This document shows positions 3,939 to 19,488 of a stretch of 62,994 nt of DNA, one piece after another (within the stretch, counting starts at the first letter, position 1; each line of letters opens with the position of its first letter). The position numbers were made by a program, and so were the translations under genes. This DNA is from a virus (lineage: Duplodnaviria > Caudoviricetes), in IMG/VR virus record IMGVR_UViG_3300048839_001305, positions 1 to 62,994 of that record, one strand, 5' to 3'. The notes beneath the pieces are model-generated. The model ran no database searches, was not told where the DNA came from, and saw nothing but the letters and a program-made list of their open reading frames with translations.

Positions 3939-4151
3939 ATGGACAACGTGAAGCAACTAAGAAAGTCACTATCGAAGGCCGAGGCCACCTTGCGCCGGGC
4001 GCAGGCGGCGTACTCGACGTGCCTCCTGGCGAGCGACCACGCCGGCTGCGCGGCCGAGCAGGACACGCTGGCCCGCGCCGAGCGCGAGGTCAATGCCCTG
4101 CGGCACAAGATGGCCGAGGCCGAACGCCAGGCCGGGCGGAGGATGGCCTGA
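3939..4151 (+). CDS. Small coiled-coil protein
   Basis: GAGGG SD; heptad-like sequence. Confidence 0.65.
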   Translation: MDNVKQLRKSLSKAEATLRRAQAAYSTCLLASDHAGCAAEQDTLARAEREVNALRHKMAEAERQAGRRMA

Positions 4152-4543
4152 TGGACACGAGCAACGTCTGCGCCCGCTGCGCCGGGCCGGGGGCCAACAC
4201 CTACTCCGGCGACGAGTGGACGCACTATTACATGGGTGACTGCATCGAGCATCTACGCCGCCGCGCCGAGGCGGCCGAGCTTTCGGCAAGCCGCAACCGG
4301 GGAGCGCTGTGGGACGAGCACCAAAGACTCCAGGCGGCCGAGGCGAAGGTGGCCGAGTTGGAAGACAAGCTCGCCCGGCAAACGTTTGTGACGGACCGAC
4401 GGCCGCCGGAGGGCGAGCCGGTCGAGGTGCTGCTCGTCGCCCAATGGGAGCCGCGAATTGTGCCGGAGGCTCGCGGCCGTTGGCGCGACCGGCGATACGA
4501 GACGCTGAGCGGCGTACTGGGCTGGCGGCCCAAACAGGAGTAA
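4151..4543 (+). CDS. Zn-finger/coiled-coil protein with DUF551-like tail
   Basis: TGATG coupling; CARC..H..C; ends VLGWRPK. Confidence 0.6.
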   Translation: MDTSNVCARCAGPGANTYSGDEWTHYYMGDCIEHLRRRAEAAELSASRNRGALWDEHQRLQAAEAKVAELEDKLARQTFVTDRRPPEGEPVEVLLVAQWEPRIVPEARGRWRDRRYETLSGVLGWRPKQE

Positions 4544-4550
4544 TGACGCC

Positions 4551-4970
4551 ATGACCAAGAAAATCTACGATGAATTGACGGAAGACCAGTTATCTGTTCT
4601 CTACAAAGCGCGTTTTATGCAGGACTACCCTGACAGGTCTCTTCTGTTCCGGCGAATATTCAAGCTCGACGACGCGCTGAAAGAGGCCCGCACCTGGCAT
4701 CCCATGACGGAACCCCCACCCTCCAGCGAGCCGGCTTACCTTGTGGCCGCCTGGAGCGGCGACGAGTGGTATTACACCACGGCCTATTGGCACAAGTACC
4801 ACGACCTGATCGACGATGAGGAAAGCGTCGGCCGGTTTATGACCGGCGAGTATGAGTGGTTCCAATTCGAGGGCCAAGAACCCTATCCGTTCGACGCATC
4901 CAGATACTCGCTCTGGCGCGCGATCCACAACGAACCGCCGCCGCCCAACCCGACCGAGTACGTGCGATGA
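4551..4970 (+). CDS. DUF551-like protein
   Basis: WHPMTEPP...YLV...WRAI...PP pattern. Confidence 0.55.
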   Translation: MTKKIYDELTEDQLSVLYKARFMQDYPDRSLLFRRIFKLDDALKEARTWHPMTEPPPSSEPAYLVAAWSGDEWYYTTAYWHKYHDLIDDEESVGRFMTGEYEWFQFEGQEPYPFDASRYSLWRAIHNEPPPPNPTEYVR

Positions 4971-5182
4971 CCCGCCAAACCCGCCCTTCGTACACACGGT
5001 CGCGGCCAAAGGCCGAACGTTGCGGGAAATGCGGCAAGATGACGCCGTTGGACAAGCTCTATTGCCAGAAAAGCGCCGATGACCTCTTTCTCGTAACCGA
5101 ACCGGCGGTTTGCGTGGAGTGCCTTCAGGTGATAGAGGCCGCGCAGCGGGTGGCCACGGCGGAGGAGACGGAGACACCATGA
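4967..5182 (+). CDS. Small Zn-finger protein
   Basis: CGKC and CVEC; ATGA coupling at both ends. Confidence 0.65.
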   Translation: MTRQTRPSYTRSRPKAERCGKCGKMTPLDKLYCQKSADDLFLVTEPAVCVECLQVIEAAQRVATAEETETP

Positions 5183-6195
5183 GATGGTATGACGTGAATA
5201 TCGCTGGTCGCTATGAGGGTAAGCCGCGCGAGGTCAACGAGACCGTGCAGGCCCGCAACGAGGAGCTGGCGGTGAAGAAGGCCGTGGCGGCCGAGCTTGA
5301 CCGCCCTGACTGGAGCGAAATTGTGTGGGACTTCTCCGACGGCGGGCGGATGGTTATCACCGTTCAGGATGACGAGGATGGTTATAAGACGCTCAAGACC
5401 AAGCACACCTCGCTGTACGATCTGGTCACCGAAGTGACCGACGGAGCGCGACTGTCGCGGCTGGCCGGCGCGCCGGAGTTGCCGGGCCTGTCGGATGGCT
5501 CCGCGGCCGAAGGCAACGCCGCCTCGCCCCGGCGTCTACCATCCCGCTTCTTCCGGGTGACGTTGCGCGGCGAGACGCCCGACGGCTACCAAGTGTCACA
5601 CGCCTCGACGTACCGGGCGTGGACGCATGATGGAGCATTGGTCAGGGCGATGGAAGCGGCGCTCGACGTTCGGCCCGGCGACGGCCGTTGGGTCAAGGGC
5701 TTCGCCGGCCCGGCGCTTAGCCCGCGCCTGAAGCACGGCCAGTTGTTTCTGGAGCTTATCGGCCCACCCGGCCCGAAGCGCGGCCTGACGGTGAAGGGCA
5801 GCACGCTATGGGACATCGTGGAGGAGGTCAGCCCGCCGTCATGGGCCACGCCGGACGCCGCACCTGACGCCTACCAGCGGCAAGTGCTGGCGACGTGGGG
5901 CGCGGCCGGCGGCTCCTTCACCGCGCAGCTCCTTCCCGCCGTGCTGGGCCTGGTTGGCGAGGCAGGCGAGGTGGCCGACCTTATCAAGAAGCAACTTTTC
6001 AAGCCGGGCACGGTGCGCGACAACGCGGCCGTCATTGATGAACTGGCCGACGTGGCCTACTACCTGGCCGTCTTGGCGTCGCTCTACGGGGTGACGTTCG
6101 ACGGGCTGTTCGCTCATCTGGCCGGGAAGCTGGCCGGTGGGCACGGCTGGGTAAACCCGTCGAATTCGACGGGTTTGGAGGTGGGTCATGAGTGA
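5179..6195 (+). CDS. MazG-like nucleotide pyrophosphohydrolase with duplicated N-terminal domain
   Basis: C-terminal LGLVGEAGEVADLIKK...DELADVAYYL MazG motif. Confidence 0.85.
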   Translation: MRWYDVNIAGRYEGKPREVNETVQARNEELAVKKAVAAELDRPDWSEIVWDFSDGGRMVITVQDDEDGYKTLKTKHTSLYDLVTEVTDGARLSRLAGAPELPGLSDGSAAEGNAASPRRLPSRFFRVTLRGETPDGYQVSHASTYRAWTHDGALVRAMEAALDVRPGDGRWVKGFAGPALSPRLKHGQLFLELIGPPGPKRGLTVKGSTLWDIVEEVSPPSWATPDAAPDAYQRQVLATWGAAGGSFTAQLLPAVLGLVGEAGEVADLIKKQLFKPGTVRDNAAVIDELADVAYYLAVLASLYGVTFDGLFAHLAGKLAGGHGWVNPSNSTGLEVGHE

Positions 6196-6520
6196 GTTGA
6201 AAAAGCCCCGGCCCAAAACCAGACGGGCTTACGACTACAACGAGTGCCGGGACTGGCTCGAAGTCAAGTACGGCTATGACGAGCGTGACTATGCCCGCAG
6301 GTATGACGATGGCGGCCATGACGCAACCGCTCCCTACCGGGACTTCTGGCACTTTGTCCTCGACATGGAGCAGGTTCATAACGGTTGCTACATCACCATA
6401 AAGGAGGATTGGCTGGAGGATGCGGAGCCGTGGCAACAGGAGATCGTCAACCACTACCTCAGGCACTTCGGGCGCGTTGTTGACGGTATCCGTCAGGCCG
6501 CGTTCTGGGTAGAGTGGTAA
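6188..6520 (+). CDS. Hypothetical protein
   Basis: GGAGG SD; overlaps the upstream stop. Confidence 0.75.
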   Translation: MSELKKPRPKTRRAYDYNECRDWLEVKYGYDERDYARRYDDGGHDATAPYRDFWHFVLDMEQVHNGCYITIKEDWLEDAEPWQQEIVNHYLRHFGRVVDGIRQAAFWVEW

Positions 6521-6556
6521 CAGTCACAAGGCCGACAACCGACAACGGAGAAATCA

Positions 6557-7168
6557 ATGACTAGTGACAATTTCAAACATCCCTACATGGCCGTCGCTTG
6601 CCCCTCCTGCGGGGCAAAGGCCGGCGGCTGGTGCAAGCGGCCGTCGGGCCACAGCGGGCCGTTCGTGGCCTTCCACGCGGCGCGGCGGAAGGCGGCCGAG
6701 GAGGCCGCAACTCAGGCCGAGGGGCAGGGGGAGAGCGTCGCCCTCGTCACCCAGACCGTGCCCGGTACGCTGTCCTGGGCAGTGGAAACCCATATCCGCG
6801 TCAAGGCGGAGCAGCGCGAGGCGCTGTGCTTCGTCCGGTTAGGCGACTTCTACGAGACGTTCAACGACGACGCCATCCTGACGGCCGCGGCGCTAGACGT
6901 GGTATTGACCAGCCGGCCGTTGGGGCAGGGGCAGCGTATGCCCATGACCGGCTTTCCCGCGCACGCCGGCGAGAACTACTTCGCCCGGCTGCTGGCTGCG
7001 GGTCACAAACTGGCGGTGATCGAGCCGGACGGGGCGGCGCGGACGCTGACGGCGGCCGTGGCGACTGTATCCGAGACGGTTGAAGCCGAGCCACTGGTGC
7101 TGTTCCTGTCTGTGCCGAAAGAAGCCATTGCCGGCCGCGGCGTGCCGGTGCAACTGGCGTTGTTTTAG
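6557..7168 (+). CDS. Zn-finger fused to stand-alone MutS domain I (mismatch recognition)
   Basis: CPSCGA..WC..H..H; FVRLGDFYETFNDDA..AAALDVVLTSR..PMTGFPAHA matches the MutS N-terminus; C-terminal QLALF. Confidence 0.85.
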   Translation: MTSDNFKHPYMAVACPSCGAKAGGWCKRPSGHSGPFVAFHAARRKAAEEAATQAEGQGESVALVTQTVPGTLSWAVETHIRVKAEQREALCFVRLGDFYETFNDDAILTAAALDVVLTSRPLGQGQRMPMTGFPAHAGENYFARLLAAGHKLAVIEPDGAARTLTAAVATVSETVEAEPLVLFLSVPKEAIAGRGVPVQLALF

Positions 7169-7190
7169 GAATTTAGAGAGACGCGAGGGA

Positions 7191-7880
7191 ATGATGGCAC
7201 GCCAAAGCGACATAGCGTTGCAGCGCCAACTGAGAGAACGGTTGGTCGCAGCAGGGTACGAGAGACCATTGGATATTCGATATATCCGGCACGAGAACGG
7301 TAAACACCTTGATGCCGCTGTGTTCTATCGCGGCACTGCCCCGGTAGCCATTTTCACTACTGACGGCGAAACCTGGAGCCGGCAGAGCGATTCGGCCGCC
7401 GGACTGGAGCTTAGCGCAGGAGAACAGCCGGCACCATCGCGAGGTGAGAGTCGGGCGCCCCATGAACCCATCGAGCGCGTAGCCGATGCGTTCATGGGCA
7501 TCCATGCGCTAATTGGCGATCTGATTAAGAGGCTGACACACCTCGATGAGCAGAGTGAGGGCGCGGCGCTTTCGGCCTCACTCACCGTCACACGCTTCGG
7601 AGGCGTTCCGGTGCTGGTGGATAAGAGCTTTACCCCGGAGCGCGATTTGGCGTGGCGCAGCACCGAACACACTCCGCTGTGGAGTCTGTATTGGCGCGAG
7701 CCAGTAGCCGCCGGATGCGACTCAGTGTCCTGGTTCGTCTCGCTTGACAAGGGCGCGGACGGCCCACTGCACCTGCACGTGCGCCGGGTGCGCGACCGTG
7801 GGCGAAGGGCAGTCACGGACTGGATGATCGAGGTGGACGGGCTAGAAGAAGTCGCGGCCGACCAGGGACAAACATCATGA
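7191..7880 (+). CDS. Hypothetical protein
   Basis: GAGG SD; lower GC; coupled to the ParB start. Confidence 0.65.
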   Translation: MMARQSDIALQRQLRERLVAAGYERPLDIRYIRHENGKHLDAAVFYRGTAPVAIFTTDGETWSRQSDSAAGLELSAGEQPAPSRGESRAPHEPIERVADAFMGIHALIGDLIKRLTHLDEQSEGAALSASLTVTRFGGVPVLVDKSFTPERDLAWRSTEHTPLWSLYWREPVAAGCDSVSWFVSLDKGADGPLHLHVRRVRDRGRRAVTDWMIEVDGLEEVAADQGQTS

Positions 7881-8932
7881 GTAACACACAACCAATTCAG
7901 CCGCAGGCCATCGAGGCCGAAGGGGCCATTGAGGCCCTCCATATCCCCGTCGCGCTCATCGACCGCGACCCGGCCCAGCCGCGCACCCACTTCGATGAGG
8001 CGGCGCTGGCGGCGTTGGCCGAGAGCATCCGGCAGCACGGCGTCATCCAGCCCATCGAGGTTGAAGAGACGCCCGACGGCCGCTACCGCATTCACCACGG
8101 CGAGCGGCGCTGGCGGGCGTCGAAGTTGGCCGGGCGGGAAACCATCCCGGCCGTCGTCGCCCCGGCGCGCGCGGCCGATGAACGGCTGGTGCGCCAGGCG
8201 CTGGAGAACCTCCACCGCGAAGACCTCAACCCCATCGACGAGGCCCGCGTCTACCAGGGTCTCATCGACCACGGCTGGGCGCGGCTGCGCATCGCCCGCG
8301 AGACGGGCAAGTCGCTACCGACCATCAACGGCCGGCTGGCGTGGCTGAAGCTGGAGCCGGAGGTTCAGCGCCTCGTGGCCCTGGGCCATCTGTCCAAGGA
8401 CGGCCGCCTGGCCGAGAAGCTCTACGTCCTCCCGCCGGAGGCCCGCGTGCCGCTGGCCGGGAAGCTGGCACGGCACGGGCTGGGGTTGCAGGCGTCCCTG
8501 CGGGCGTGCGACCGGGCGGCCGAGGAGATCGCCCGCAAGGCCGAGGCGCTGGAGGAGGGCCGCCGGCACCACGCCGACCGCGCCGCTGGCGTGCCCAGAG
8601 CCAATGGGGCGTTGGGGACGGGCGACCCGCCCGGCCGCAACGGTATGGCCCATCCTGTGCCGCTGGTGGCCTACGGGGCGGGCGGCCGTCGGGCGGTGAC
8701 GGCGACCATCGGCGCGGCGGCCGAGGCCATGTGCCGGCAGTGCGCGGTGCGCCCGGCCGGGGCCGACGTCATCCCGGCGTGGGAGATCGTCGAGCGGGCG
8801 GCGGCCGAGACGTGCGCCGCCTGCGTCAGGCGCGACGGCCCGCCCATCCCCAGGGTGTGCGAACTGTGCCAGGGGGCGGCGCTGTTGGGGCGGCTGGTGG
8901 GGGCGGTGAAGGCGCAGGAGGCGGCGGAGTAA
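7877..8932 (+). CDS. ParB/Spo0J-family protein with Cys-rich C-terminus
   Basis: QPRTHFD..LAESIRQHGVIQPI..HGERRWRA..ENLHREDLNPIDEA. Confidence 0.92.
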   Translation: MSNTQPIQPQAIEAEGAIEALHIPVALIDRDPAQPRTHFDEAALAALAESIRQHGVIQPIEVEETPDGRYRIHHGERRWRASKLAGRETIPAVVAPARAADERLVRQALENLHREDLNPIDEARVYQGLIDHGWARLRIARETGKSLPTINGRLAWLKLEPEVQRLVALGHLSKDGRLAEKLYVLPPEARVPLAGKLARHGLGLQASLRACDRAAEEIARKAEALEEGRRHHADRAAGVPRANGALGTGDPPGRNGMAHPVPLVAYGAGGRRAVTATIGAAAEAMCRQCAVRPAGADVIPAWEIVERAAAETCAACVRRDGPPIPRVCELCQGAALLGRLVGAVKAQEAAE

Positions 8933-8935
8933 CAC

Positions 8936-10090
8936 ATGAAACAGGTGTCCCTCTTCGACGACCAGCGCCTGACTTTGAACGGCGCGATTGAACTCAGTCT
9001 GGCGAGTCTGGAAGAGTACGGCCGCCGCTACCGGCATTGGGCCGTGGCCTACTCCGGCGGCAAAGACTCCTCAGCCACGGTTGCGTTTGTGGCCTGGGCT
9101 ATTAAGTCCGACAAGGTTGAGCGGCCGGACTCACTCACCATCCTCTACGCCGACACGCGCCAGGAGTACCCGCCGCTGCACGCCACGGCCGTGCAGGTGT
9201 TGGCCGCCCTGCGGCGCGACGGATTCGACAGCCGCGTCGTGCAGCCGGCGCTGGACGACCGCTTCTACGTCTACATGCTTGGCTACGGCGTGCCGCCGCC
9301 GTCGAACCGCTTCCGCTGGTGTACACCAAAGCTGAAGATCGAGCCGATGGAGCAGGCGTTGGAAGCGCGTCGCGCCGAGACGGGCGAGAAGTTCCTGATG
9401 ATCAACGGCGTGCGGCTGGGCGAGAGCGCGGCCCGCGACCAGCGCATCGCCCTCTCCTGTTCCAAGGACTCAGGCGAGTGCGGCCAGGGCTGGTTTCAGG
9501 TTCGGCCGCCGGACGCGGCCGGGGACACGCTCGCGCCGCTCCTCCACTGGCGTCTGTGCCACGTCTACGACTGGCTCTACTTCGAGAACGGCCGTCACGG
9601 CTACCCGGAAGTGGCCGGGATTGCCGACGTGTACGGCGACGACGAGGTGCGCACCGGCTGCATCGGTTGCCCGCTGGCCAGCCGTGACACCGCGCTGGAG
9701 AACCTCGTCCGCCGGCCGGAGTGGGCGCACCTGCGCCCGCTCCTAGAACTCAAGGGCATGTTCCGCGAGATGAAGCGGGCCGAGTGGCGCAAGCGCAAGG
9801 CCGAGCCGGAGCGCCGCCAGGATGGGGGATGGTCCAAGAACGGCCAGCGCAAGGGGCCGCTGACGATGGCCGCCCGCGCCCACTGGCTGGACAAGGTGCT
9901 CGACGTGCAGCGCCGCTCCGGCGTCGATCTTATCAACGCTGAGGAGGAGGCGCGCATCCGCGAGATGTGGGCACTGGACATGTGGCCGCGCAAGTGGTCG
10001 GCGGCCGACATCGACGCCGACGAGCTGATCGACCGCATCTCGTCCGTCGGCGGCGACCTGGTGGTGCAGCCGGTGATGGTGAAGCCGTGA
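8936..10090 (+). CDS. PAPS reductase family protein, DndC-like
   Basis: PP-loop SGGKDS, FRWCTPKLKIEP, GVRLGES, RTGCIGC, C-terminal GPLTMAAR...LINAEEEARIREMW. Confidence 0.88.
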   Translation: MKQVSLFDDQRLTLNGAIELSLASLEEYGRRYRHWAVAYSGGKDSSATVAFVAWAIKSDKVERPDSLTILYADTRQEYPPLHATAVQVLAALRRDGFDSRVVQPALDDRFYVYMLGYGVPPPSNRFRWCTPKLKIEPMEQALEARRAETGEKFLMINGVRLGESAARDQRIALSCSKDSGECGQGWFQVRPPDAAGDTLAPLLHWRLCHVYDWLYFENGRHGYPEVAGIADVYGDDEVRTGCIGCPLASRDTALENLVRRPEWAHLRPLLELKGMFREMKRAEWRKRKAEPERRQDGGWSKNGQRKGPLTMAARAHWLDKVLDVQRRSGVDLINAEEEARIREMWALDMWPRKWSAADIDADELIDRISSVGGDLVVQPVMVKP

Positions 10091-10114
10091 GTGACTTCGA
10101 CTGGGAGGCCACCG

Positions 10115-10396
10115 ATGACCGAGAGTGAGATGGCGGCCGTCATCGACCGGGCCGTGCGCTACGCCGTGCGCGGCGAGGCCAACCGGCGGCCGTATCTTTT
10201 GGACGACGAGACGGTCGCCCGCGCCCACGCGAGCCACATGGCCGGGCTGAACCTGCAATGCCTGGGGCGGCACTACGGCGTGCGGGCGGGCTACCTGGGA
10301 AGACGGTTCCGCGAGCTGGGCCTGCCGGTGCGCAACTATACGAGCAAGCGGGCGCGGGCCGCGGCGCTGGCGGCCGAGGAGGAAGGTGAGAGATGA
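10115..10396 (+). CDS. Small HTH-like protein
   Basis: GGAGG SD; GLNLQCLGRHYGVRAGYLGRRF. Confidence 0.6.
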   Translation: MTESEMAAVIDRAVRYAVRGEANRRPYLLDDETVARAHASHMAGLNLQCLGRHYGVRAGYLGRRFRELGLPVRNYTSKRARAAALAAEEEGER

Positions 10397-10818
10397 CCGA
10401 CATTATCAGCCGCGCGGTTGGCCGGCTGCGGCCGGCGCGCATCATTCGGGCCGAGAGGATGCTCGACCTGCGGTTCTTCGTGGGGCTGGCGCTGCTGCTG
10501 GCGGCCAAGGGGCTGGCCACGCTGGTGGGCACGCTCGGCCCGGTCGCGCTGGTGGCGTGCGGCGTACTGGCGCTGGCGGCCGTCCTGCTCTGGTTCTACC
10601 GGCCGGCGGTTATCACCGCCTACATCCCCTTCGAGCACTACCCGTGGGATGAGGAGATCGTCATGGCGCGAGTGGCCGAGACGTTGACCTGCCTGTGCTG
10701 CCTGCGCCGGCTCGACCGCCCCGGCCATCTGGAGGTGACGCGCTGCCGCTGCGGCACGGTCTACGGCACGGCCGGCGCGGCGCTGTACGTGAAGTGGGCC
10801 GGCGGCCGGGAGGGTTAG
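10393..10818 (+). CDS. Membrane protein with C-terminal Zn ribbon
   Basis: Two TM segments; CLCC and CRCG. Confidence 0.65.
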   Translation: MTDIISRAVGRLRPARIIRAERMLDLRFFVGLALLLAAKGLATLVGTLGPVALVACGVLALAAVLLWFYRPAVITAYIPFEHYPWDEEIVMARVAETLTCLCCLRRLDRPGHLEVTRCRCGTVYGTAGAALYVKWAGGREG

Positions 10819-10858
10819 ACCATGTGCAAAGTGGCGCATCTGCGCCAGGAGGACAGGC

Positions 10859-11431
10859 GTGAGTAGTGTATATGCTATCTGGAACTATCAGACGAAAGAG
10901 GTCGATTTCCTGCATGAGTTGCCATCGGACTATGTGGATTACATTTCGCCCGACTCTGTGATCCGCCACGAAAAATACGTCGCCCAGGGCGACTCGCCTA
11001 TCGAGGCAGCGGCGAAGGTGTGGAGCGCGGGCAACGCGGCCCACGAGCAAGACCAGGCGATACTCGCTCAGATCGAAGCCGGCCGGAGGATGGGCGAAGC
11101 GCTGGGGGTGCTCAAGCCAGACGTGCCGCCGCAACCGCGGCCGAACGTCACGAACGACGCAGCGATGAACGACACCGGTTGCCTGTGGGTGGCGCTGATG
11201 ATTATCGGGTTGAGCGCCCTCTTCCTCGCCGCAATACTGTCCCTGAACGCCGCCTGGCCGTGGCTGGAGCGCGTGGGGTCGCTGGTCTACGGCTGGGTAG
11301 TGGGCCACGCCGCGGCCGGCGCCGTCGCCGCGGCCGGCGCCGTCGCCGCGGCCGGCGCCGTCGCCGCGACCACGACGGCGACGGCCGCCTTTGGGCTGGC
11401 GTGGTGGTTGGACGAACGGGACCGGCGATGA
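10859..11431 (+). CDS. Membrane protein
   Basis: AGGAGG SD; hydrophobic C-terminal half. Confidence 0.7.
   Translation: MSSVYAIWNYQTKEVDFLHELPSDYVDYISPDSVIRHEKYVAQGDSPIEAAAKVWSAGNAAHEQDQAILAQIEAGRRMGEALGVLKPDVPPQPRPNVTNDAAMNDTGCLWVALMIIGLSALFLAAILSLNAAWPWLERVGSLVYGWVVGHAAAGAVAAAGAVAAAGAVAATTTATAAFGLAWWLDERDRR
11309..11368 (+). repeat. 18-bp tandem repeat x3 (AAAGAV)
   Basis: GCCGCGGCCGGCGCCGTC three times plus a partial copy. Confidence 0.9.
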
Positions 11432-11604
11432 GCGCCACCGGCTACCCCTATGTCTACGTCTGGGGCAATAACGAGAAGCGCGTCACGCTGCGCGGCCGTC
11501 GTTGCCGGGTGGTGACCCGTGGGACGCTCAACAGCGCCCTAGTGGAGTTTGAGGGCGGGCAGCGGGAGATCATCTCGCGCAATGCCCTGCGGAGGGTTAG
11601 ATGA
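11428..11604 (+). CDS. Small hypothetical phage protein
   Basis: ATGA coupling; WGNNEKR..GRRCRV..NSALVEFE..SRNALR. Confidence 0.7.
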   Translation: MSATGYPYVYVWGNNEKRVTLRGRRCRVVTRGTLNSALVEFEGGQREIISRNALRRVR

Positions 11605-11885
11605 ACATCATTCAGATCATCCGACAGCGCATCGAGCGTCGTCGTCGTCGTCTGGCGGCGCTGGACATGCTCATGCGTGTGATCGAACGAGAGGCGCTCA
11701 ACGCGCTGCGGGAGGACAATCCGTCCCTAGCCCGGCTCATCGAGCAGGCATCCGGCAGCGGCGCGAGTTATCGAGAGATCATCGGCATGGTGGGGGCCAC
11801 GCGGCACGCATCCACTATGAGCGTCGAGACGCGCGCCGCCATCCGCGCCGCCATGCGGCAGACGAGGGAGGCGGCCGGTGAGTGA
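11601..11885 (+). CDS. Hypothetical protein
   Basis: GGAGG SD; ATGA coupling. Confidence 0.65.
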   Translation: MNIIQIIRQRIERRRRRLAALDMLMRVIEREALNALREDNPSLARLIEQASGSGASYREIIGMVGATRHASTMSVETRAAIRAAMRQTREAAGE

Positions 11886-13125
11886 CACGACGTTCGACCT
11901 GGACGCGCTGCTGGATGAGGTCGTGCTGCACGCGGCCGTCGCCGGTGGGCGCGATCCGGCGCTGGTGGCTGCCGGGTTCGGCGCGTCGCGGACGGTGGCC
12001 GCCGCGGCCGTCGCCGGTGGCCCTCCTGCGCGGCGCGGGCCGTCCAGCGCCAACCGCTGGACGGCCGCGGAGCGGGCGTTCCTGGAGGCGTGGGCCGGGG
12101 AGCTGGGCGACAGGGAGATCGCCCGGCGGCTGGGGCGGTCGGAGGCGGCCGTGCGCGTCCGACGCGTCCGCCGGGGCCTGCGCGGGCCGATGGTCTACGC
12201 CGACTACCTGACGGCCCAGGACATGGCCCGCGCCCTGGGGGTGGACGTGAAGTCGATCTGCACCCTCATCGAGCGGGGGCTTCTGCCGGCCGAGATCGCT
12301 CCGCTGCCGCAGCGCAAGGTGTGGCGCATGAGGCGGTCGGCGTTCGTGGCCTGGGCGGTGAACCCGCTGCACTGGCCCTACTTCTACCGCGTGGTGCGCG
12401 CCCCGGAGCGCATCCGCGACGAAGCCCTGCGACGGCTCATCGTGCGCCGCGCGGCGGCGTGGGGCGACGCGTGGTGGACGACGGGCGAGGTCGCCGCCTA
12501 CCACGGCGTGAGCGACCGCGTGGTCAACCGCCGCATCCTCGCCGGGCGGCTGGCGGCCGTGCGCTGGAGCAACTGGATGGTGCGCCGCTCGGACGCCACG
12601 TCGCCGGCGACGCGCTTTTTCGGCGGCAAGGGCGGCGCGATGCTGGACCTGTACGGCACGCCGCGCGGCGATGCCTTCCTGGTGCTGGCCGCGGCGGTGG
12701 GGATACCCGACGCCCAGATCGGCCGCATGGCCGGGCGCGAGGGCAACAGCGCGATGCGTATCCGGCTCGACGCCCTCCACCGCGCCGGGTACATCCCCTG
12801 GCTCATCCACGCCTACGAACTGCCGGTGGCGTACCGGCCGACCGACGGCGCGCTGTGGGCTGACTGGCGGCCGCTGGCCCACCGCTTCCCGCGGCTGGCG
12901 CGGGCGTGGGCGCGGTGGGAGGCGGGTGAGCTGCGGCGGCGCGACGAGCGGAGCGAGCGCAACCTGGTCAACGGCGTGCTGCGGGCGGCCGTGGCCTGGC
13001 ACATGGGCGAGGCGGGCGCGGCGCTGGTCGGCCGGCTGGTGCGTTGCGATAGGGCGGCCGAGGCCGAGGCGTGGGGGTTGTGGGAAGGGTGGGCGGCGGC
13101 CGAGTTACCGCCGCCGGGAGGGTGA
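11878..13125 (+). CDS. Multi-HTH DNA-binding protein
   Basis: RWTAAERAFL..EIARRLGRS; LTAQDMARALGV; WTTGEVAAYHGV; DAQIGRMAG. Confidence 0.75.
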   Translation: MSDTTFDLDALLDEVVLHAAVAGGRDPALVAAGFGASRTVAAAAVAGGPPARRGPSSANRWTAAERAFLEAWAGELGDREIARRLGRSEAAVRVRRVRRGLRGPMVYADYLTAQDMARALGVDVKSICTLIERGLLPAEIAPLPQRKVWRMRRSAFVAWAVNPLHWPYFYRVVRAPERIRDEALRRLIVRRAAAWGDAWWTTGEVAAYHGVSDRVVNRRILAGRLAAVRWSNWMVRRSDATSPATRFFGGKGGAMLDLYGTPRGDAFLVLAAAVGIPDAQIGRMAGREGNSAMRIRLDALHRAGYIPWLIHAYELPVAYRPTDGALWADWRPLAHRFPRLARAWARWEAGELRRRDERSERNLVNGVLRAAVAWHMGEAGAALVGRLVRCDRAAEAEAWGLWEGWAAAELPPPGG

Positions 13126-13126
13126 C

Positions 13127-13234
13127 ATGATTGAAAGCGAGTTTGTGCTTCTCTTGGGCGGGTTAGTGGTTATCCTATTTCTGGCCGTCGTCGTGCTGGA
13201 AAGCATCGCCGAGCGGCCGCCGGGCAAGAGGTGA
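13127..13234 (+). CDS. Small single-TM peptide
   Basis: GGAGGG SD; one hydrophobic segment. Confidence 0.55.
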   Translation: MIESEFVLLLGGLVVILFLAVVVLESIAERPPGKR

Positions 13235-13316
13235 GGGCAGAAGTGGCCGTCGCCCTACTAGACCCGCCGGTTCCCCCTTCGTCTTTCCCCGGTCAAAATC
13301 CCGACAAAATCCATAA

Positions 13317-13372
13317 GACATAAACCGGCGGCCGTCTACCGGCCGCCGGTCGCCTGTGGTAAAATTTATGTC
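13317..13372 (+). promoter_or_regulatory. Extended -10 promoter with hairpin and flanking inverted repeat
   Basis: TGTGGTAAAAT at 13355-13365; hairpin ACCGGCGGCCG-N5-CGGCCGCCGGT; GACATAAA...TTTATGTC. Confidence 0.5.
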
Positions 13373-13472
13373 AATCGGCGGCCCTGGCGGCGGCCGATGG
13401 CGGCGGGGTGTCCGTCGCCGAAGCAGTCGCGGGAGTGGTTCCCCGCGACGGTAGACAGACGGAGTGTATGCC

Positions 13473-14093
13473 ATGTCAGCAACGCGAATTGGTTCTATCC
13501 GCGTCCCCATTGCGGTCAGCGTCGGCCTGCGCGACGGCGAGTACCGCTGGTGGGCGGTCATGCCCCGGTGGGGCGCGCCCCCGGATACCCCCTGGGCCAC
13601 GGCCGCGCCGGCCCTGCCGCCGGGCGGCCGCATCTACCGCGAGGCGTCGGGGTATCTGGCAGATTCACCCTGCTTTCTGGTGGGCGACCGCTCGCGTGGC
13701 CGGGAGACGCCGGAGGCGGCGGCGGCCGAGGCGCTGCGGCGCGAGCTGGTCATCGGCCCCATCGCCGACGGCATCGCCCGCGCCCACCCCGGCCGGGCGG
13801 CGGTGTTCTTTATGGACGGCAACCGCCCGGAACTCCACTGGGTGTGGCGGCCCGACCCGACGACCCGCCCGGAGAACCTGAACCCGTGGGAGCGGCAGGC
13901 CGTCGCCGCGACGGCCGTCTACCGGCGCTTCTCGGTCATCCTGAAGGATTTGGACGACTGCCGCACCTGGATTGTCGAGGCCGTGACCGGTGGGGTGGGG
14001 ATCGTGCGGCTGGCCCGCGAGCCGGAGGGGGCGTCCACCCGCTGGCTGGCCCGCGCCGGCGGCAAGCAACTCCTGATGGGGAGGGTTCTGTGA
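13473..14093 (+). CDS. Hypothetical protein
   Basis: GGAG SD before ATG 13473. Confidence 0.6.
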   Translation: MSATRIGSIRVPIAVSVGLRDGEYRWWAVMPRWGAPPDTPWATAAPALPPGGRIYREASGYLADSPCFLVGDRSRGRETPEAAAAEALRRELVIGPIADGIARAHPGRAAVFFMDGNRPELHWVWRPDPTTRPENLNPWERQAVAATAVYRRFSVILKDLDDCRTWIVEAVTGGVGIVRLAREPEGASTRWLARAGGKQLLMGRVL

Positions 14094-17229: not shown

Positions 17230-18192
17230 GTGGCGCGCCAACACAGCAACGGCGACGCCGCGTTTCATGGGATGCAGGTGGCAACCGATGCGCCGGCCCG
17301 CCCGGCCCTTAGATATCACGGGAGCAAGCACCTGCTCATGCCGTGGACGCTGGCCCATCTGCCGGCCGACCACGACGTGTACGTATCCGGCTTCTCCGGG
17401 TCGTTTGCCGACATTTTGCGGAAGCCGAAGTCGCTCATCGAGGTGGCCAACGATCTGGACGAGGACGTGATGAACTATTTCCAGGTCTTGCGTTCGCGCA
17501 AGGCGGAGCTGGTCGAGCAGATCAAATACACTCCTTTCCACGTGGGGGAGTATCGCCGGGCGCAGGAACCGGCGATTGATCCCCTGGAGCGGGCGCGTCG
17601 TTTCTACGTCCGGTCGTACATGGCGATTGCCGGGCCGACGGCTCAATGGAACACCGGTTGGCGTCGCCAGAAGGTCTTCAGCCGCGGCCGGACGGGTCGG
17701 AAGATGATGGTTCCGGCGTCGGTAACGTTTTACAACCTGGCCCATTTCGACGCCATTGCCGAACGTCTTCAGGGCGTGACGTTCGAGATGATGCCCGCCC
17801 TCGATCTGGTCAAGCTTTACGACAACCCGCGGACACTTTTCTACCTCGACCCACCGTACCACCCCGACACGCGCTCCAAGTGGGCGACGAAGGCGTACCG
17901 GCACGAGATGACGGCCGCCGACCACGAAACGATGCTGGAACAGCTTAACCGTTGCGTCGGGATGGTGGCCCTGGCCGGCTACCGTTGCCCGCTGTACGAC
18001 GAGGCGTTGACCCGCTGGGCGCGCTATGACCGCCGCTCGCGGGTCAACAGCAACGGTCATCGTACTGAATCGCTGTGGCTCAACCCGGCGGCCGAGTGGT
18101 CGCTGCGCCATCGCGGGCTACCCCTGTTCCGGTCTCTTTTTGCCGCCGATGGTTGCGATCCGTTGCCATTGGGCACGGACGAGGAGGAGTGA
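17230..18192 (+). CDS. D12-class N6-adenine DNA methyltransferase
   Basis: LRYHGSK, EVANDLD, FYLDPPY, RTESLWLN. Confidence 0.93.
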   Translation: MARQHSNGDAAFHGMQVATDAPARPALRYHGSKHLLMPWTLAHLPADHDVYVSGFSGSFADILRKPKSLIEVANDLDEDVMNYFQVLRSRKAELVEQIKYTPFHVGEYRRAQEPAIDPLERARRFYVRSYMAIAGPTAQWNTGWRRQKVFSRGRTGRKMMVPASVTFYNLAHFDAIAERLQGVTFEMMPALDLVKLYDNPRTLFYLDPPYHPDTRSKWATKAYRHEMTAADHETMLEQLNRCVGMVALAGYRCPLYDEALTRWARYDRRSRVNSNGHRTESLWLNPAAEWSLRHRGLPLFRSLFAADGCDPLPLGTDEEE

Positions 18193-18556: not shown

Positions 18557-18829
18557 ATGAACTTCAAGGACTTAGCGGCCCACATCCCCTTAGTCAGGCC
18601 CCGCCCGGCGGCGACGGCGGCCGAGCAGGCCGAGTTGCGCCGGCGCATCCTGCGCGGTCAGTTGCGGGGCGACACGGCTGCGGCGGCGACCGTCGCCGGT
18701 GACTTGGTGGCCCGGTGTATGGCCCTGCGCGACCGGGATGAGGAGCTGGACGATGTGGCCCTGGTGGCCGCCGCGCGCGAGGCCCACGAGTTGCGCTGCA
18801 AGCTGGAAGGGCTGGAGGCCGCGCTGTGA
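18557..18829 (+). CDS. Hypothetical protein
   Basis: GGAGG SD. Confidence 0.6.
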   Translation: MNFKDLAAHIPLVRPRPAATAAEQAELRRRILRGQLRGDTAAAATVAGDLVARCMALRDRDEELDDVALVAAAREAHELRCKLEGLEAAL

Positions 18830-19488
18830 ATCCCGCCCAGTTCATTCAGCAGGACAGCGGCGAGTTTGAGTGGTACACGCCGCTGGACATCATCGAGGTC
18901 GTGCAAGCGGTTCTGTATCCGGGGATCGACCTCGACCCGGCCTCCTCGACCGTTGCCAACGCGGTAGTGAAGGCCAAGAAGTACTACACCTATGAGGATG
19001 ACGGATTGACCCTGCCGTGGGAGGGCCGGGTATGGCTCAACCCGCCGTTTTCCGAGGTGGCCCGCTTTGTTGACAAGCTGCTGCTGGAGTACGAGATCGG
19101 CCGCGTGACCGAGGCGTGCGTCATCACCTTCGCCTCGCTGGACACGGCCTGGGCGCGACGCCTGGCGGCCTTCCCGCGCTGGTATCCCAAAGGGCGCGTG
19201 AACTACAGCCCCCTGTGGGAGGAGCGCCGGACGCCCATCCAGGCCCTGCCGGGCATGGCCGACCAGGTCAACACCGGCGACCGCAACGACCGCAACCGCC
19301 CGTCCTCGCCACCCAAAGGATCGATGGTCACTTACATCGGCCCGAATGAGCGCGTGGCCCACTTTGCCCAAACCTTCACCAGTCGTCTGGGTGGGTGGGT
19401 GGACGTGCCCTGGGAGTGGCACAAGCGCCGCATGACCTCCGAGGGGCTGACGGCGGCCGTCACGGGAATGTGGGGGCTGGGTCGATGA
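18826..19488 (+). CDS. Phage N6-adenine DNA methyltransferase (phage Dam-like)
   Basis: EWYTP, DLDPAS, DDGL..W.GRVWLNPPFS. Confidence 0.9.
   Translation: MNPAQFIQQDSGEFEWYTPLDIIEVVQAVLYPGIDLDPASSTVANAVVKAKKYYTYEDDGLTLPWEGRVWLNPPFSEVARFVDKLLLEYEIGRVTEACVITFASLDTAWARRLAAFPRWYPKGRVNYSPLWEERRTPIQALPGMADQVNTGDRNDRNRPSSPPKGSMVTYIGPNERVAHFAQTFTSRLGGWVDVPWEWHKRRMTSEGLTAAVTGMWGLGR

Follow-up and report, generated by a model that had tools for sequence, protein, structure and literature searches.

DndC and SspD, the nearest sequence relatives of the enzyme described here, act on DNA. This enzyme is encoded by an open reading frame (ORF) of 384 aa (8936–10090, + strand) of the IMG/VR viral record IMGVR_UViG_3300048839_001305, whose 62,994 bp (approx. 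68% G+C, with nearly all genes on the + strand, and an estimated completeness of approx. 80%) are the window that was analysed; directly upstream lies an ORF of 351 aa that codes for a ParB protein (7877–8932, + strand). An earlier note on this DNA proposed that the two genes are coupled, i.e., that an orphan DndC-like enzyme together with a cysteine-tailed ParB would either modify DNA with sulfur or interfere with the Dnd defence of the host. According to the accessible portions of two reports, DndC is a PP-loop enzyme that carries a 4Fe-4S cluster on three cysteines and, besides these, a distinct cysteine dyad (PMC10853773, PMC12839542). Pairs of the IbrA/IbrB type, in which a protein of the phosphoadenosine phosphosulfate (PAPS) reductase superfamily stands beside one of the ParB superfamily, as it does in the window, are listed in phage genomes in the available part of another article (PMC4490671). 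The enzyme stands alone and belongs to PHROG 12882, a very large family of phage and prophage proteins that mostly carry the annotation 'PAPS reductase' or 'DndC', and its gene is a movable single-gene cassette placed precisely at the boundary of the ParB gene with the gene that follows. We hold the identity of the enzyme and its cassette status with high confidence; with it, an uncharacterised, widespread family of phage proteins, already known and sister to DndC, gains a further member.

Relationship of the enzyme to DndC

The match to PHROG 12882 covers nearly the whole protein (E 9.2e-124, residues 8–382 on positions 9–403 of a profile of 404). This family is annotated as 'phosphoadenosine phosphosulfate reductase' and placed in the category 'moron, auxiliary metabolic gene'. 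The sole Pfam domain detected is PAPS_reduct (2.1e-8, 34.8 bits for a cut-off of 22.5), with no match to DUF3440. More than 5668 near-length homologues (E ≤ 1e-5) were present among the 8000 candidates scored, and a full profile search recovered 2493 clusters at 50% identity (E ≤ 1e-3), or 343 at E ≤ 1e-30. The closest protein relatives (P0001–P0004) show 86–95% identity, and homologues with 36–50% identity occur in cultured phages of Microcystis (Mae-JY29), Rhizobium (RR1-A), Thermus (Tsatsa) and Pseudomonas (D14A, Dobby and phiC725A). The closest bacterial copies (63–70%) belong to metagenome-assembled genomes of Chloroflexota (Caldilineaceae, Aggregatilinea and Anaerolineae), which suggests that Chloroflexota is the host phylum of the phage; many other bacterial copies, with 50–53% identity, are found in Cyanobacteria and other phyla.

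The resemblance to DndC extends well beyond the PAPS_reduct domain, given that the match to the DndC model TIGR03183 (2e-33, 116 bits) spans positions 13–364 of 447 and the homology runs into the C-terminal GP...helical region. Nevertheless, the score is far below the equivalog cut-off (116 bits, or 105.6 in the six-frame search, versus 290.4), and therefore the enzyme is not a DndC equivalog. When TIGR03183 and NF005316 are considered together, the enzyme reaches 116–127 bits for cut-offs of 290 and 536, whereas true DndC proteins score 586–740 bits; it is also approx. 150 residues shorter than DndC. The scores of TIGR03183 in 301 cyanobacterial genomes are bimodal, with 82 true DndC proteins at 586–740 bits and four members of the phage family at 130–137 bits. 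Of the PADLOC models, that of DndC (3.3e-38) was matched much better than those of BrxP (1.1e-14) and SspD (1.2e-10), both of them weak matches; the SspD model gave 39.6 bits, versus 306–452 bits for true SspD proteins. The NCBIfam matches of the enzyme did not include TIGR00434, the cysH model.

A maximum likelihood tree, obtained with the quick method of IQ-TREE with SH-aLRT support and rooted on CysH, was built from 67 rows: 33 of the family, 17 DndC, six SspD, five IbrA-like proteins (PAPS_reduct plus DUF3440) and six CysH. It left out BrxP, as well as two family loci (L197 and L204) in which no ORF passed the filter. DndC and the PHROG 12882 family were recovered in one clade (support 93), within which the true DndC proteins formed a closed clade (support 100) that did not include the enzyme. 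Practically all the family rows (32/33) grouped together (support 91), and the remaining one, from the Thermus phage Tsatsa, fell on the DndC side (support 88). CysH remained as the outgroup, and the SspD and IbrA-like rows were located on separate long branches outside DndC and the family; the SspD clade had a support of 99, and that of the DUF3440 proteins was distant (branch 3.16). By this tree, the family of the enzyme is the sister group of true DndC, and not part of CysH, IbrA or SspD. The enzyme did not cluster with CysH, and the view that it is DndC-like rather than CysH-like, already expressed in the earlier note, is borne out by the profile scores as well as by the tree.

The motifs by which the protein had initially been recognised as DndC-like beyond its PP-loop, i.e., FYVYMLGYGVPPP..FRWCT.KLKI.P, RTGCIGC and GPLT..AR.., are all present in the translation and correspond to conserved columns in 83–86 relatives; therefore, they are not due to chance. 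The PP-loop SGGKDS (residues 40–45; 9053–9070, + strand) is invariant in 83/83 aligned sequences. Six cysteines (C129, C175, C182, C208, C242 and C245) are likewise invariant across 83–86 family sequences that share 44–95% identity. Three of them have a counterpart in the DndC encoded by the dndBCDE cluster of Salmonella (L088), which has cysteines at positions 82, 146, 262, 273, 280 and 283: Cys129, in the motif RWCT (9320–9322, + strand), aligns with Cys146, and the pair GC(242)xxC(245) (9659–9670, + strand) aligns with Cys280 and Cys283. No other cysteine of the Salmonella protein aligns with those of the family. The loop SC(175)....EC(182)GQGW (9458–9481, + strand), which lies before a conserved Trp motif, is family-specific; C175, E181, C182, G183, G185 and W186 are invariant, and no cysteine of the Salmonella DndC aligns with it. 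Cys208, in HWRxC (9557–9559, + strand), is also invariant and family-specific, and Salmonella DndC has an Asp at this position. From the alignment, the family seems to keep the PP-loop and the three candidate cluster cysteines of DndC, and the dyad seems to have been replaced by a trio of its own (C175, C182 and C208).

The distribution of these motifs in the rows of the tree follows a similar pattern. RWC is present in 17/17 DndC, 6/6 SspD and 33/33 family rows, and in none of the five IbrA-like or the six CysH rows; GCxxC shows the same counts, except that it appears in 1/6 CysH rows. The less stringent form of the PP-loop, SGG[KV]DS, was found in 14/17 DndC, 5/6 SspD, 33/33 family, 5/5 IbrA-like and 0/6 CysH rows, and SGGKDS itself in all 33 family rows and in none of CysH. 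The tripeptide ECG is found in every family row (33/33) and in every CysH row (6/6), and is absent from the DndC (0/17), SspD (0/6) and IbrA-like (0/5) rows. In the family it occupies residues 181–183 (9476–9484), in a flexible internal loop and not in a C-terminal tail.

The AlphaFold 2 (AF2) model of the enzyme has a predicted local distance difference test (pLDDT) value of 87.6 and a predicted TM score of 0.86; residues 173–180 have a pLDDT below 50, and this loop is therefore considered flexible or disordered. With Foldseek and VIA-align, residues ~5–252 matched the PP-loop ATP-pyrophosphatase fold (Z 11–13.4), and the C-terminal ~130 residues were barely covered. The top matches were tied between the PAPS domain of FAD synthase, CysD, the [4Fe-4S] tRNA thiolase NcsA (Z 12.7), APS reductase and GMP synthetase; further matches were TtuA, LarE, ThiI, TilS and QueC. 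A sequence search of the PDB with the enzyme as query returned no DndC-type structure, and its best match was a transketolase with an E value of 0.19. The [4Fe-4S] PP-loop thiolases TtuA, NcsA and LarE, which act on tRNA or on a cofactor, resemble the enzyme in fold over residues ~1–247 (Z 10–12.7), and a three-cysteine cluster together with adenylation by ATP may be the chemistry that they have in common; however, the identity is only 11–15% and no accessory domains are shared.

With respect to the partner genes, the description of the enzyme as an orphan holds. Six-frame searches of the window (E ≤ 0.01) gave no match to DndD (TIGR03185), to DndE (TIGR03184) or to the class-V aminotransferase/cysteine desulfurase family (PF00266), the result for DndE being a weak negative in that its control was silent in all the control genomes. 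None of the PADLOC models of Dnd, Ssp or BREX matched the other 70 ORFs of the window, in which only methyltransferase models, mad1 and PD-Lambda-5_B were detected; SspB, SspC and BREX components, with which SspD and BrxP operate in SspABCD and type 4 BREX, were thus absent among these ORFs. Since the record is approx. 80% complete, partner genes could still lie beyond the window. Beyond this locus, no Dnd partner family was found among the top families listed for 235 immediate neighbours of family members (163 viral and 72 bacterial), and in these two surveys, of the window and of the listed neighbour families, neither DndA, DndB, DndD nor DndE was detected near the enzyme.

The ParB gene and the enzyme cassette

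The ParB and enzyme genes are separated by only 3 bp, as had been reported, with CAC (8933–8935, + strand) between the ParB stop codon TAA (8930–8932) and the ATG of the enzyme at 8936. The sequence GGAG, 8–9 nt 5' of this ATG, places a ribosome-binding site inside the 3' end of ParB. No terminator-like site was found on the + strand in positions 7160–12599, so that co-transcription of the two genes is plausible; a scan of positions 4000–14000 for sigma-70-like promoters gave 0 sites.

In spite of this arrangement, the functional coupling of the enzyme to ParB did not survive comparison with related loci. Over positions 5179–8924 of the window, the DNA shares 95% identity with that of a sister phage (L089 in G001; 100,464 bp, 89% complete), and the similarity ends at the 3' end of ParB (8924). 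The ParB of this phage has 93% amino acid identity and the same cysteine tail, and the enzyme gene has no match in its whole 100,464-bp record (E ≤ 0.01). The 14 nt at the right-hand junction of the cassette, TGAGTGACTTCGAC (10088–10101, + strand), directly follow ParB in the sister phage (6063–6076 of L089). The same junction is therefore found after the enzyme in the window and after ParB in the sister phage, which identifies an exact single-gene insertion or deletion. It was also observed that an ORF of 415 aa located in the window at 11878–13125 has a second, 66%-identical copy directly after ParB in the sister phage (6063–7300 of L089); this copy occupies the place of the enzyme gene, as in a mosaic exchange at gene boundaries.

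A hidden Markov model (HMM) of ParB, made from 120 homologues, was used on the flanks of 245 family loci. ParB-like ORFs were found near eight of them (5/85 viral or phage, 1/80 bacterial and 2/80 metagenome loci), and the other 237 had no detectable ParB in their flanks. In the viral and phage set, only L034 has a ParB directly upstream of the family member; the two metagenome loci are L300, in which a tail-type ParB lies at 2.3 kb on the upstream side, and L297, in which one follows directly downstream. Conversely, none of 59 ParB-centred viral loci, five of them with a cysteine tail, had a family member within 4 kb when searched with tblastn and the family HMM. The best match in a scan of metagenomes, a contig of 1.8 kb (L282), encodes an enzyme 88% identical to that of the window, with a different N-terminus and upstream sequence, and no ParB match was found in its 468 bp of upstream DNA. 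From these results, ParB and the enzyme do not look like a module and their pairing looks incidental; the ParB gene stands apart from the enzyme, which it does not need, and is conserved in this phage lineage. An association in approx. 3% of the loci remains, and therefore leaves room for a loose functional link.

The ParB protein itself is assigned by its matches to the CTPase-type ParB proteins of the Spo0J/Noc class, with a helix-turn-helix (HTH) domain and a long helix. Pfam detects ParB_N (1e-25, residues 21–112) and HTH_ParB (3.4e-10), the score for TIGR00180 is 131.9 bits (E 2.1e-38) for a cut-off of 58.45, and the best solved relatives in a PDB sequence search were Spo0J, ParB and Noc (1e-31 to 1e-22). 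The GERRxRA box (G75, E76, R77, R78, R80 and A81) is invariant in 42 tail-type relatives, and the AF2 model has a mean pLDDT of 81.3. The N-terminal CTP-binding domain with this box and the HTH are shared with the chromosomal ParB, Spo0J and Noc proteins; however, these align to only the N-terminal ~45–60% of the phage protein, which has a conserved tail of approx. 65 residues instead of the C-terminal dimerisation domain. This tail (8708–8911, + strand) contains in the alignment three CxxC pairs (C286/C289, C313/C316 and C328/C331), in addition to P300 and W302, and its six cysteines are invariant in 42/42 aligned tail-type ParB proteins. The AF2 model predicts, with moderate confidence, helices at residues 301–350 (pLDDT ~74–84), and residues 244–292 have low values. 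The paired cysteines suggest that the tail may bind metal, and the tail-type proteins constitute a distinct sub-family of approx. 45 proteins. Given that the sister phage keeps the tail and lacks the enzyme, the role of the tail is independent of the enzyme.

Of the 33 families of the window, the 25 that were listed include no ParA family. A parS-like 16-mer with three mismatches to the consensus lies on the junction between ParB and the enzyme (8928–8943); nevertheless, the scan (up to three mismatches) gave two matches, a count that was reached in 11/100 shuffles, and for this reason the matches are treated as chance.

Neighbours of the family and proposed activity

The genes that most commonly flank the family in viral and phage loci (n = 85) code for DNA methyltransferases. 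They were found upstream in 16/82 cases (nine N6_N4, six C5 and one D12) and downstream in 13/81 (seven C5, three Dam, two D12 and one N6_N4), which gives 29/163 adjacent ORFs versus 12/150 distal ones (odds ratio 2.5, Fisher p = 0.012), the distal control being the longest ORF per zone at 2–5 kb in the same loci. The same adjacency was seen in the cultured phages. In two proteins the association is physical: in P0393 an entire family protein, its six cysteines included, is fused to a C5 DNA methyltransferase, and in P0392 the fusion is to an N6/N4 methyltransferase. The bacterial copies have varied neighbours. Some cyanobacterial copies (L113, L115, L117, L119, L122 and others) have upstream a divergent ORF of ~700 aa on the minus strand with HNH_repeat (11/72), and this ORF may be a conserved partner in cyanobacteria. 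DUF5131, the phage Gp37/Gp68 family (L092:4856–6001 and other loci), was observed in 6/163 adjacent and 6/150 distal viral ORFs and in 2/72 bacterial ones, which include that of the closest Caldilineaceae copy.

Taken at the level of the family, a role in DNA modification is plausible. The reading that we favour is that of a sulfurtransferase-like enzyme, mobile and stand-alone, which would depend on ATP and Fe-S and probably modifies phage DNA. In such a mechanism, the PP-loop would bind ATP and adenylate the nucleic-acid substrate, and C129, C242 and C245, the cysteines in common with DndC and SspD, would hold a [4Fe-4S] cluster; C175 and C182, in the flexible loop, together with C208, would take persulfide sulfur from a cysteine desulfurase of the host and pass it on. 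The likeliest substrate would be the DNA of the phage itself, a proposal based on the action of the nearest relatives on DNA and on the DNA methyltransferases that accompany the family. This DNA might be marked early in infection, alongside the action of the phage DNA methyltransferases, and thereby escape host restriction; the candidate product could be a phosphorothioate, a thio-base or another modification. Sulfur modification of DNA with the help of the host desulfurase is, in our opinion, a reasonable proposal. The DNA-sulfur mechanism taken by itself is tentative, and we place it somewhat below an even chance; for the complete explanation, in which identity, cassette and mechanism are joined, we consider the balance to be even. 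It is possible, although rather doubtful, that the family constitutes a DNA sulfur-modification system of a single polypeptide that requires only the host cysteine desulfurase and makes phosphorothioates or a thio-base, with the sequence targeting provided by the adjacent or fused DNA methyltransferase.

Several points weigh against modification of phage DNA with sulfur by this enzyme. To our knowledge, known phosphorothioation always requires an ATPase as well as partners that handle DNA (DndD/E, SspB/C), none of which was found here, and the PP-loop fold also serves chemistry that does not involve sulfur, such as amidation and lysidine formation. The C262/C273 pair of the Salmonella DndC, which is the dyad by our own assignment, has no aligned cysteine in the family. 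The enrichment of methyltransferases is only ~2.5-fold, a protein that matches two families may have been counted twice, and the distal control took the longest ORF of each zone; only 2/19 long homologues are methyltransferase fusions. In another long homologue, P0394 (1028 aa), a PAPS_reduct domain similar to that of the family is joined to Amidoligase_2 (2.6e-42), a hint that the chemistry of some relatives may be a ligation that does not involve sulfur. The tree, from which BrxP is absent, was obtained with a quick method, and its key branches carry no star. Finally, in the portions available of the literature searched, no experiment on any family member was found; phage genes of this kind are listed there as metabolic genes (PMC5463345, PMC11318856), or marked as possible DndC relatives that were left untested (PMC8092301, PMC12429752).

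Other explanations differ from this one in the substrate, in the partner or in the need for catalysis. Modification of RNA or of a free nucleotide, by which the enzyme would be a tRNA thiolase, a lysidine-type enzyme or a maker of modified deoxynucleoside triphosphate precursors, is unlikely in our estimate. It agrees with the presence of NcsA, TtuA, ThiI, TilS and QueC among the closest solved folds, with a MazG-like pyrophosphatase 2.7 kb upstream of the enzyme, and with the fact that no DNA-binding domain was identified in a protein whose last 130 residues are barely covered by the fold search; however, DndC and SspD are closer in sequence than any of these, and the fusions and adjacencies involve DNA methyltransferases and not tRNA or nucleotide-synthesis genes. 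A dedicated two-gene module, in which ParB loaded on DNA recruits or delivers the enzyme and its cysteine tail perhaps passes sulfur or metal, is very improbable. The enzyme-less sister phage, the ParB-centred loci without family members, the 237 family loci without ParB and the upstream region of L282 all contradict it, and tight packing is general among phage genes. In favour of the module are the 3-bp gap with the ribosome-binding site within ParB, the lack of a terminator-like site between the two genes, the recurrence of ParB at low frequency (L034, L300 and L297 among the eight loci) and the inclusion of DndB of the Dnd systems in the ParB superfamily, as stated in the accessible text of PMC10853773. 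The IbrA/IbrB-type pair is likewise a poor equivalent, given that the enzyme and the DUF3440 proteins differ in clade, domain and the RWC and GCxxC motifs, and that the ParB of the window, in contrast to IbrB, belongs to the Spo0J/Noc CTPase type.

That the enzyme modifies nothing and acts as an anti-defence decoy or inhibitor, titrating Dnd, Ssp or BREX-4 components of the host or its desulfurase, would fit the presence in a phage of a protein that is homologous to an enzyme of a defence system and lacks its partners. This alternative, which formed part of the earlier proposal, is very improbable, because the PP-loop and the six cysteines are invariant at 44–95% identity, as expected for an active enzyme and unusual for a decoy, and because no true DndC that could serve as target was found in any of the eight genomes with a family member (4/4 host and 4/4 cyanobacterial genomes); moreover, the family spans many phyla. 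We regard as extremely improbable that the enzyme is an auxiliary metabolic PAPS or APS reductase of the CysH type that boosts sulfate assimilation by the host. The Pfam match, the PHROG category, the ECG tripeptide and the presence of APS reductase among the top folds point in that direction. CysH carries ECG in its C-terminal tail; in the family, by contrast, it is internal, the SGGKDS motif that CysH lacks is retained, CysH falls outside the clade formed by DndC and the family, and TIGR00434 is not matched. In addition, the genomic context differs, with the family genes located among replication and DNA-modification genes and fused to DNA methyltransferases.

The consequences of these findings concern the family more than the individual locus. 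The locus on its own changes little: the family is common in phages, this gene is simply another copy, and the pairing with ParB that made it stand out is not conserved. On the other hand, thousands of phage and prophage genes counted as sulfur-metabolism genes under the name 'PAPS reductase' are, according to the tree and the motifs, DndC-like PP-loop/Fe-S enzymes with links to DNA methyltransferases; the metabolic inferences drawn for such genes are probably wrong. With its six invariant cysteines, a stand-alone enzyme that is sister to DndC provides a concrete candidate, easy to test, for a modification of nucleic acids in phages that has yet to be described, and the family offers a minimal system for chemistry of the DndC type without DndD/E. 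If the single-polypeptide proposal were true, the label of 'PAPS reductase' or metabolic gene would have concealed a new class of DNA modification, widespread in phages and directed against restriction.

Other genes of the window

Two DNA methyltransferase genes are found in the window 7–9 kb downstream of the enzyme. The first codes for a D12-class N6-adenine DNA methyltransferase (17230–18192, + strand; PF02086, 1.3e-15) and the second for a Dam-family DNA methyltransferase (18826–19488, + strand; PF05869, 6.6e-12), both with scores over the cut-off.

Upstream of ParB, the ORF at 6557–7168 codes for a protein of 203 aa formed by a phage zinc-finger (PF24623, 1.2e-9) and MutS domain I alone (1.4e-19), i.e., an isolated mismatch-recognition domain without the ATPase. 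The MazG-like pyrophosphatase mentioned above is restricted to the C-terminus (PF03819, 3.8e-5; phrog_229, 6.5e-16) of an ORF of 361 aa (5110–6195), and no family was assigned to its N-terminal 250 aa. The 3' end of this gene contains a perfect palindrome of 24 nt, AAACCCGTCGAATTCGACGGGTTT (6153–6176).

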